Source: a virus (lineage: Duplodnaviria; Heunggongvirae; Uroviricota; Caudoviricetes). Taken from it: 40,979 nt of DNA. This document shows positions 30,901-33,900 of this stretch, piece after piece. Position numbers: made by a program. Numbering within the stretch: the stretch's first letter is position 1; each line of letters begins with the position of its first letter. The stretch lies in IMG/VR virus record IMGVR_UViG_2703718797_000012. The stretch is one strand, 5' to 3'.

Positions 30901-33900
30901 AGGCTCTTGGTGGTGCAGCACTGAATTCTGCTAATGATGTTTCCAGGATGGCAAAGTCAGGTGCTGGGCGTCAGTCAATTGCCAGTCAGGCCGCTAATGT
31001 GTCCGAAGATGTAGCAAAAGCGGCTGAGTCTGCTGGAATTGATATAAACGCATTAACACCAGGAATGCGATCAGGAAGTCGTGGAATTGCACAAGCCGAA
31101 GGCGCATTGGCATCAACACCAGGAATCGTTCAGGACGCCCATCAGGCAGCATTTAACGAAATATCATCAAAGTTAAGTCGAAACCTTGATGAATTTGGGG
31201 CCGCATCTGGAACGGCATCAGAAAAAAGTGCGGCTATAAAACAAAGGATTCTTCAAAATCTTGATCAGATGAAGGATGCCGAGCGCGCGGCATGGGATGA
31301 CGTGCGGTCAACAATGCCAAATCAAAAATCAAGAATGCTAAATGGTAATGCCGTTATTCAGGCAGAGCGATCTGCTGGCATACCGCTTACTCCTGAAATG
31401 AAACAGTTTGTTCAGGCAAACAATCAAGGTGGAGTAACATTTGATGGCATGAAAGCATGGAGAGCGAAATTTGCTGATGCGGAGCAAAAATATAAGCGTA
31501 GCGGAGAGGCAAATGCGGCAAGGAGAGCAGGGGAAATACGCCGGGCAATTACTGATGATATGCGCACAATGGCGGAAAACGGCGGATTTCTTGATGACTG
31601 GCAAAAAGCTAATGATCTGTCTAAAGCGAGGTTATCAGCACAAGAGAGTGCAGAGTCTGTTTTCGGGCGTGATTTGGCAACAGATGCACTGATTACGAAT
31701 GGAGTAAAATCCCTTCAATCATCGTCAGCTAAAGGTCTTAATGGTCCTGCTGGATTCCATTCTATGATCCGCGCGCTGCCAGAATCAGAGCGTGTTCCTG
31801 CTATATCATCAATGTTGCAAGATGCTATCTCGCATGGTGTACGTGGTGGCAAAGCTGATGCAGCAGGAATTAACCATATCGCAGAGATACTCACTCCACA
31901 AAATGTAAAAGCCATTAGCCGATATTCCTCAGAGCTTGGAAGAATTGCAGATGCATATGGCACTCTTGCAAGAGCAGCAGTGAAACCTCAGCAGTATATT
32001 GAAAGAACAGGGAGAACTGCCAATGTACTACGCGATCTGGATGCTGGTTTATCCAACGTCACATCAACAGTGTTAAATGCAATTGCTAACTCAACATCAG
32101 GTGCCATTGTTGGTGGAGCAGGAGGGGGCATTGCAGGCGCTGCCGCAGGTGCTTTAGTTGGCGCTGGGTTAAAAGGCGCTGTATCTAAAATTGCCACCAC
32201 ACGTAGTGGTCGATATGCGATAGAGAAAGCTGTTCAGGAAGCCACCAAAGCAGTAAGAGCAGGCGGAAGCAAAGAAGCATTACTGGCGGCGGAACGCAGA
32301 TTTATGGCAAATAAGGCCGCCGTAAAAGCAATACGTGATACAGTCGGAAACGAAGAGTTTCAGCGCTTAGCGAGGGCTGGTATTGTGGCATCGCTAAGCG
32401 GAATGGCACAGGAGTAATTAGTCATCCATGGATGGATTGAGCTTATCTCGTGTTGATGTGGCAATTTTCCCAACATTTTTCAACCAAGATTTTAAGAAGG
32501 ATATGTCGTCCTTAATATCATGAATATCCTCATTCTTTATACGATCAACCTTATCCTCTAGGCTCTCTATAGAACGCTCAATGCTAGACAGAGAGATTTT
32601 TAAGTCTCCTTGCTCACGTTCCAGTGAGGATTTGAGAGCACAATATTCGTTTTCTAGAATTCCTATTTTTTTTGTTAGATAGTGCATTCGATACTCATAC
32701 ACCAAACCAGAAACGACTAATGCAGACAACAGAAACCATTCAAGCACACCAACCTCCTTAGTTGATATTTTATTTGTATGAAATCAACGAGTTAAGCTCC
32801 CTCTCATTTAGAGATTGGAATCTTTTTTCAGTTATATCAATGATGGCTGGCAATAGTTTTTTTACCTTCTCATGACCATCAGGTTTAATGATAGCAATGA
32901 TCTGGATATGAATTGGATATGTGTTGTGTACCGCAAATATCAAAAAGTTATCGCTAACTCTACGATGTATTGGCGTTGTTTTTAACCAAGGGTCATCTAC
33001 TCCAGGGATCCTGATGTGCGACTTGTAAATTCCCGATAAGACGGCGTGATGGTTTCTCTCAAACCCACCAATCTTACCAAGATAAGCTGAAACGGTGCCT
33101 CTGTTTTTGTAGTTTGCAAGAGCCTTCGCAAAGTATTGTTCTAATGGTCCAGCCGCTGCATCTACAACAATGCTTATGCGGTTTTCCATTTTGGTGCTTC
33201 CATGCCAAATCTTTTATGTGAATCTTCAACTGATTTCTTGAATGAAGCCAACTCTTCTTCAGTGAACTCTTCAGGTTCAGCATATGATAGTGGTATGTGC
33301 TGCATTGCTAGCGTCACAAGCCCCATAGTTAGCCTTTTGTATTCTATAAAAGTATTTATTGAGTGGTTTTTCATTGTTGTAAGAGTTGACATATGGGGCT
33401 TCCACGCATCGCTGTTCTCAGCGATGAAGAAGGTATACAACAGTTTCGCGATACCATAATCAAGCTTAGATATTTGATCGTTCAACATATCTACATCGTC
33501 ATGTTGAATATCAAGTGAGGAAATATCTTCTTCCGTACCATTACTTAATATGTCAATGAATGTAATGTACTTTTTGCAAACTTCCTCTACAGGTGACATA
33601 ACGCAGTAGATCTTGCTAAGAGCTTCAGAAGCCTGTTTTTTAGACAAAGAGCCGCTATGACTGCGATCAAAGTCTGAAATTGAACGCTCGATAGATGTTG
33701 ATATGTCAGAAAAAACGTTTTCAATTTTTCCTGGCTCTTGATTCAGGATGGCCATAACGCCTATCTCAATCACAATGTATACCTTGTTATTTTATATCAA
33801 CGAACAAACATTGACCTATCTGGTCTCGTACATTTTTTTCAGGGTTTCAAACACCATCTTCTTAACAATTTCTGCTTGCTGATCAGCCAAGCGTTCAGCT

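Follow-up and report, generated by a model that had tools for sequence, protein, structure and literature searches.

Two adjacent genes of a P22-type, CUS-3-like prophage, called A and B here, probably form a type II toxin–antitoxin (TA) cassette that the prophage acquired horizontally, and hkcB, the gene that follows them on the same strand, is best regarded as separate from this cassette. The prophage is contained in IMG/VR record IMGVR_UViG_2703718797_000012, a 41-kb stretch (40,979 nucleotides) referred to below as the window. Judged by its sequence, the window is P22-like (Lederbergvirus) and a close relative of the E. coli K1 phage CUS-3; positions 32300-34100 show a 96.5% match to CP000711 across 88% of their length. 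A preliminary description of the window had placed three co-directional minus-strand genes between ejection gene 16 and the maintenance repressor gene mnt, and had treated them as one operon of undescribed function. All three are real genes (199, 139 and 109 amino acids; coordinates in Table 1), and both the 16-nucleotide overlap of the first two and the AAGGAGG-GTG start of the last were confirmed. The position is also as described: mnt ends 42 nucleotides upstream of the start of gene A, on the same strand, and the corresponding interval of P22, from gene 16 to mnt, is occupied by sieA. The first two genes are A and B.

The preliminary description assigned none of the three proteins to a family, yet the product of the middle gene, B, matches the Pfam family YafO_toxin (PF13957) with 45.1 bits (gathering cutoff 25, E = 1.1e-11) over 98 of the 101 profile positions. 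Homologues of B are named 'type II toxin-antitoxin system YafO family toxin' by NCBI, and RefSeq gives gene B the YafO label in 44 of the 5,426 complete genomes of E. coli, among them UTI89, IHE3034, PMV-1 and APEC O2:K1 strains. YafO, a member of the RelE/ParE superfamily, is an endoribonuclease that acts on mRNA, and PF_YafO is counted among the BECR-fold mRNase toxins, with the antitoxin gene preceding the toxin gene (PMC11980606). In an alignment of nine sequences that includes K-12 YafO, FER, H57, R76, P102, H105, E120 and F123 are invariant, charged residues and histidines among them. No solved YafO-family structure was detectable for B by sequence. From these comparisons B is placed in a divergent YafO subfamily and is not an orthologue of K-12 YafO.

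The genomic contexts of A and B point to the two genes, not three with hkcB, as the evolutionary unit. Genes resembling A and B were adjacent and co-directional in 12 of 12 contexts examined, and an hkcB-like gene was absent from all eleven contexts of the pair other than that of CUS-3. In Pectobacterium the pair forms a stand-alone island between an ABC transporter operon and gcvP, and in Xenorhabdus it stands alone between slt and an ABC-F gene, with A 42% and B 58% identical to the window. Two lambdoid prophages (L009, 2785-5058; L010, 475-2311) carry the pair directly after a cI-type repressor gene (HTH_3 plus Peptidase_S24), another lambdoid prophage carries it in the nin region, and in the Flyfo siphovirus Tbat2_3 it lies between tape-measure and tail genes, the upstream protein there (190 amino acids) being a member of the A family (hhalign, 98.5%). 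The 16-nucleotide overlap of A and B is kept in Pectobacterium and Xenorhabdus, and overlaps of 1-50 nucleotides were found in nine of ten pairs. The distribution is narrow: among 50,697 phage records, A was found in CUS-3 only, and a homologue of B only in CUS-3 and one metagenomic siphovirus. The pair has the layout of a type II TA system, with two adjacent, co-directional and coupled genes, the gene in antitoxin position first, inherited together.

Gene A is probably the cognate antitoxin of B, a reading we base on the A-then-B order, the overlap, the opposite charges of the two proteins and a C-terminal tail specific to the partner. A proteins have an isoelectric point (pI) of 4.7-5.4 and their partners one of 7.8-10 in nine of ten pairs. 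Alignment of the A family revealed two C-terminal variants. The tail '..F.K.V..SH.R.G.E.P.W' accompanies a YafO_toxin partner, by Pfam or NCBI naming, in all seven cassettes that have it, and the tail 'P.WV.SG.DFV.W' accompanies a different basic partner of 125-130 amino acids (phrog_5954) in all four of the others; across all 11 cassettes, tail variant and partner family correspond. Meanwhile, the N-terminal motif IERSISDFDRSH and the helical core, with its near-invariant residues A118, W124 and H127, are independent of partner type. A partner-specific C-terminal segment on a shared scaffold would resemble the neutralising tail of an antitoxin.

The second partner was treated as a distinct family because hhalign shows no relationship to YafO: comparison with the YafO alignment gave a probability of 0.1%, and an H-x-H ... 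P-x-x-H pattern noticed by eye is only superficially similar. Searches of Pfam, NCBIfam and PDB with this protein gave zero matches, and phrog_5954 is a candidate undescribed toxin family. Its genes (L007, 2065-2457; L008, 889-1266; L014, 2333-2716; L013, 881-1123) always follow A-like genes with the second tail variant, and its members share the motifs LPGRNK, LWHYHIG, FGDWTS..VVHYQ and HPP.

It is also conceivable, if unlikely, that A and B are linked without being a neutralisation pair, with A acting as a sensor, adaptor, regulator or effector and B as a regulated RNase in phage development or host takeover. Such roles would fit the unusual size of A for an antitoxin, its conserved core, an N-terminal motif unrelated to partner type and the lack of a DNA-binding domain, as well as the cassettes in non-lysogenic positions, in the nin region and among tail genes. 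Against a role in phage development stand the chromosomal copies of Pectobacterium and Xenorhabdus, which lie outside any phage, and the combination of gene order, overlap, charge pattern and partner-specific C-tail is the classic type II layout.

The 199-amino-acid A family is the only really undescribed part of the locus. Gene A gave zero Pfam matches at E <= 1 and zero NCBIfam matches, and its phrog, phrog_18235, is labelled 'unknown'. The family is tiny: of two global searches, one gave 16 matches in 5.8 billion clusters and the other 18 representatives in 1.84 billion. An AlphaFold2 model of A is a helical bundle (predicted local distance difference test, pLDDT, 77) in which residues ~158-171 form an acidic linker of low confidence and residues 172-188 a C-terminal helix. 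The bundle is of a generic kind, and no significant fold matches to the model were found; PDB sequence and profile searches with A, B and the variant partner likewise returned nothing real. Neither A nor B has a hydrophobic segment, and no operator-like repeat was found upstream of A. Gene A has two possible starts, a GTG at 33773 giving 199 amino acids and the ATG at 33755 chosen by RefSeq giving 193. The GTG is the likelier start, judging from homologues, because Pectobacterium has an ATG preceded by AAGGA at the equivalent codon and distant relatives lack the internal methionine used by RefSeq.

Both genes appear to be maintained by selection. The A and B open reading frames (ORFs) are unbroken, with at least 99% conservation across the 44 complete E. 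coli genomes, and comparison with the Pectobacterium homologues indicates purifying selection on B (nonsynonymous, pN, 0.16; synonymous, pS, 0.80) and on A (pN 0.21, pS 0.94, with synonymous sites saturated). This conservation, the purifying selection across genera and the recurrent, independent placement of the cassette behind prophage repressor genes argue against a decaying or selfish passenger of no benefit to phage or host, whether a pure addiction element or an inactive one. We consider such a passenger improbable, even though CUS-3-like prophages are often degraded (PMC9659370), TA modules spread selfishly and the cassette has no match to catalogued defence systems.

By its distribution and sequence, hkcB is a gene of the P22-like mosaic backbone, possibly co-transcribed with the cassette but outside it. 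It is known from HK620 and epsilon34 as a gene of unknown function, and it occurs without A-B in HK620, vB_EcoP-611R6, epsilon34 and SEN22. Genes A and B of the window are 99% identical to those of CUS-3, whereas its hkcB is 97% identical to that of HK620 and 49% identical to that of CUS-3. The gene starts with GTG after ctAAGGAGGttggtGTG; the junction CTAAGGAGGTTGGTGTG is found in all three of the window, CUS-3 and HK620, which begin to differ immediately past its GTG. The switch of alleles falls exactly at the hkcB start codon, where hkcB has recombined independently. The three genes are therefore not the single evolutionary module first proposed, since A-B and hkcB occur separately and recombine independently. 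That A, B and hkcB nevertheless work together as a single undescribed exclusion or abortive-infection system of three components, in which the membrane and coiled-coil protein HkcB would be sensor or effector, is very hard to reconcile with the separate occurrences and the exact breakpoint. In its favour, the three are co-directional, closely spaced and without predicted terminators, so probably co-transcribed, they occupy the sieA slot, and the N-terminus of HkcB is hydrophobic in each of the two diverged alleles.

The two hkcB alleles, an HK620 type and an epsilon34/CUS-3 type, are about 49% identical (window 32418-32769; L001, 3119-3442; L002, 3619-3948). Besides the hydrophobic N-terminus they share the C-terminus KSWL.NVG.IATSTRDKLN.SMDD and the Shine-Dalgarno (SD)/start junction, and hkcB always abuts ejection gene 16, stop to stop. 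A transmembrane helix followed by a coiled coil had been described for the last protein; the hydrophobic N-terminus and the coiled coil are present, but the hydrophobic stretch spans only about 15 residues and has a borderline Kyte-Doolittle score of 1.35. Kinship of HkcB with the product of orf89, the other membrane/coiled-coil ORF of the window, was considered and rejected, as the two are not homologous.

The limits of the cassette are set by flanking homology: similarity to HK620 ends at 32763, 7 nucleotides beyond the stop codon of B, and similarity to the mnt genes of Salmonella phages begins at 33833. The GC content of 32764-33815, 0.382, lies below that of the window (0.469) and that of gene 16 (0.487), and is matched by just 1.75% of segments of equal size. 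The low GC content that had been taken to mark the three genes is thus real but not specific to them, as values of 0.373 for hkcB, 0.356 for orf89 and 0.43 for the immI region show the neighbourhood to be low in GC as well. No direct or inverted repeats pointing to a transposon-like insertion flank the cassette. The analysis supports the view of the locus as cargo gained by horizontal transfer and lodged in the sieA slot, behind a repressor gene that lysogens express.

Comparison of related phages identifies the interval between hkcB and mnt as a cargo hotspot, occupied by sieA and orf59a in P22 and by hkcC in HK620. In the unrelated phage L007, which has a different tail module, a variant cassette lies 44 nucleotides after mnt; Mnt of L007 is 63% identical to that of the window, and its A just 29%. 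In other P22-like prophages of E. coli the interval between hkcB and mnt holds a Panacea-domain protein with a 139-amino-acid gene in E. coli E67 (L017, 2418-3285), a PanAT-like TA pair on the opposite strand; a P63C-domain gene in ETEC1720 (L018, 2460-3509); and several small unknown genes in E92 (L019, 2114-3177).

In four of the 12 contexts the cassette directly follows the repressor gene of a prophage, mnt or cI, a placement that, as for rexAB, suggests expression in lysogens. The layout of the Pmnt-like promoter of the window corresponds to the annotated Pmnt/Pant of P22, and no terminator-like site was predicted from this promoter to the end of hkcB. In L010 the order is cI-type repressor gene, A, YafO gene and a strong intrinsic terminator directly after the toxin stop codon, with no promoter-like or terminator-like site found between the repressor gene and A; the arrangement in L009 is similar. 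As A lacks a DNA-binding domain, the cassette would depend on transcription of the repressor gene and be expressed in the lysogen. An extended -10-like sequence upstream of A (TGaTATAAA, 33791-33799), noticed by eye only, was not relied on because the transcript start would fall inside the SD sequence. A 10-bp inverted repeat, GCTTAGCGA / TCGCTAAGC, lies beyond the hkcB stop codon within the 3' end of gene 16 (32360-32400, minus strand; RNA fold z = -2.8); it is not a canonical terminator because it has no T-run.

We propose the following mechanism. Transcription in the window would run from Pmnt through mnt, A and B to hkcB, and in the lambdoid prophages from cI through A and B to the terminator, the cassette borrowing the transcription of the lysogeny repressor in both cases. 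A would be translated first, with translation of B coupled to it through the 16-nucleotide overlap. The C-terminal segment of A (residues ~172-199), held behind the flexible acidic linker, would then bind and mask the basic B protein, as the co-variation of tail and partner and the opposite charges suggest. Free B, a divergent YafO-family endoribonuclease of the RelE/ParE superfamily, would be expected from its family membership to cut mRNA and stop translation. The benefit would most likely be abortive infection or exclusion of superinfecting phages when the supply of antitoxin collapses, stabilisation of the prophage, or both. An anti-phage role for the cassette is at present a tentative suggestion, with the odds somewhat against it. 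A little more speculative is a broader view in which A proteins make up a modular scaffold, antitoxin or sensor in nature, that swaps its C-tail to control either YafO RNases or the putative toxins of phrog_5954. Temperate phages would repeatedly have placed it behind mnt or cI, where it would serve as an abortive-infection module comparable to rexAB, set off once superinfection or loss of the prophage ends the supply of antitoxin. The preliminary description had suggested an undescribed exclusion, abortive-infection or TA-like module; the TA-like option is the best supported of these, but the toxin family is a characterised one and the unit does not comprise three genes.

Several observations weigh against parts of this model. 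B shares just 19% identity with K-12 YafO and scores below the NCBIfam YafO equivalog NF007377 (14.2 bits, compared with 153), its AlphaFold2 model (pLDDT 42) is unusable for fold or active site, and it is disputed whether YafO itself depends on the ribosome (PMC8546651). Gene A is larger than its toxin, and Pfam and NCBIfam detect no helix-turn-helix (HTH), ribbon-helix-helix (RHH), AbrB or Phd domain in it, such domains being usual in type II antitoxins. The siphovirus pair shows no charge complementarity. Co-transcription from Pmnt is deduced solely from the absence of a predicted terminator, and in P22 transcription of mnt ends ahead of sieA, a gene with a promoter of its own. Finally, no defence model of PADLOC-DB 2.0 was matched, and B matched none at all; sub-threshold similarities were A to PtuB (E = 0.005, 14.5 bits, 60 residues) and HkcB to DpdH (E = 0.027).

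Table 1. Positions of the cassette and of neighbouring features in the window.
Feature	Position	Strand	Description
Ejection genes 20 and 16	29032-32417	+	Backbone
hkcB (gene C)	32418-32747	-	109 amino acids; hydrophobic N-terminus and coiled coil; phrog_5962 'unknown'
B/hkcB junction	32748-32769	-	SD/start motif CTAAGGAGGTTGGTGTG; mosaic breakpoint
Acquired A-B cassette, extent	32764-33832	.	Between backbone homology blocks
Gene B	32770-33189	-	139 amino acids, pI 9.6; YafO family; predicted mRNA endoribonuclease
A/B overlap	33174-33189	-	16 nucleotides; putative translational coupling
Gene A	33174-33773	-	199 amino acids, pI 4.9; predicted all-helical; orphan family; candidate antitoxin
mnt, immI maintenance repressor	33816-34064	-	Pfam Arc 1.1e-27 and Repressor_Mnt 5.5e-15
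Pmnt-like promoter	34092-34120	-	TTGAGA-17-TATCAT; likely source of an mnt-A-B-hkcB transcript
arc	34092-34313	+	ORF as listed, 73 amino acids
Extra ORF (orf89)	34310-34579	+	89 amino acids; phrog_27312 (unknown)
sar RNA	34574-34641	-	RF00262, 90 bits; sole Rfam match, outside the cassette
ant	34576-35577	+	Antirepressor
Endosialidase tailspike	35756-38701	+	

Other features of the window were recorded alongside the cassette. Between arc and ant, where P22 has no gene, orf89 is joined to its neighbours by 4-nucleotide ATGA-type overlaps at both ends. Its product has a strong N-terminal transmembrane segment (KD19 2.79) followed by a coiled coil, and the sar RNA overlaps the 3' end of the gene; orf89 may encode a small membrane protein co-expressed with the antirepressor. 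The arc ORF as listed begins within the Pant/Pmnt region, with the Arc domain starting only at residue 25; an internal ATG is probably the true start of the gene. Downstream of the tailspike gene, in the lowest-GC part of the window, lies a perfect heptanucleotide repeat (TCAAGAC x 11.3; 38858-38936) that resembles the phase-variable repeat of neuO, the polysialic-acid O-acetyltransferase gene of CUS-3. The PNAS paper on CUS-3 and neuO does not deal with the cassette genes. A perfect hexanucleotide repeat (CAGAGC x 9.7; 24917-24974) lies inside overlapping ORFs of the head region.

In an early census, Leplae et al. recorded Phd or unclassified 'guilt-by-association' antitoxins as the partners of YafO toxins, and saw no YafO on phages or plasmids (PMC3141249). 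Genome papers that followed described YafO toxins as 'orphans' lacking a YafN antitoxin, in Pectobacterium prophages (PMC6192338) and close to the repressor of a Pseudomonas tailocin gene cluster (PMC4684702). The toxin family and its RefSeq label were thus already known; what is new is the A family as the probable antitoxin and the link, through tail swapping, to a second partner family. The probable missing partner of 'orphan' prophage YafO is a rare helical protein of ~200 residues that belongs to no named family and apparently serves two toxin families. The cassette also adds documented TA cargo to the repressor-downstream 'moron' slots of P22-like and lambdoid prophages, and provides a testable candidate for prophage-encoded defence or stabilisation in K1 extraintestinal (ExPEC) and avian (APEC) pathogenic E. 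coli strains such as UTI89, IHE3034 and RS218. For TA biology the gain is incremental and not a new principle.

Among characterised systems, yafN-yafO of K-12 (in the dinB-yafNOP operon) resembles the cassette in having a PF13957 toxin with the invariant FER/H/R/P..H/E/F residues and a tight antitoxin-then-toxin order. The upstream partner, in contrast, is a 199-residue helical orphan and not the 97-amino-acid, Phd/YefM-type YafN, to which A has no BLASTP similarity and no shared Pfam match, and the cassette lies behind mnt in a prophage and not in the SOS-regulated dinB operon; because its antitoxin is not Phd/YefM-like and its context is not dinB, it is not a yafNO system. In position the cassette is comparable to rexA-rexB of lambda, behind cI, and to sieA of P22: all are cargo that follows a lysogeny repressor gene immediately and on the same strand, the repressor gene being mnt in the window and cI in L009 and L010. 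The likeness to SieA ends with position, as the predicted mechanism is RNA cleavage and not a block to injection, and BLASTP of A, B and HkcB against P22 SieA, a multi-pass inner-membrane protein, gave no match at E <= 10; nor do the three resemble P22 orf59a or HK620 HkcC. The preliminary description had staked its proposal on the genes showing no clear homology to sieA, hkcC or another characterised family, and it falls in part because the middle gene belongs to the characterised YafO family, but stands as regards SieA and HkcC. Unlike PanAT and other 'mix-and-match' TA modules, A carries no Panacea/DUF4065 or other Pfam domain, and only two partner types were seen for its 18-cluster family. 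The likeness to PanAT lies in the use of one antitoxin scaffold with unrelated toxin families, YafO or phrog_5954, and in the slot itself, since a Panacea-domain pair fills the same interval between hkcB and mnt in E. coli E67.

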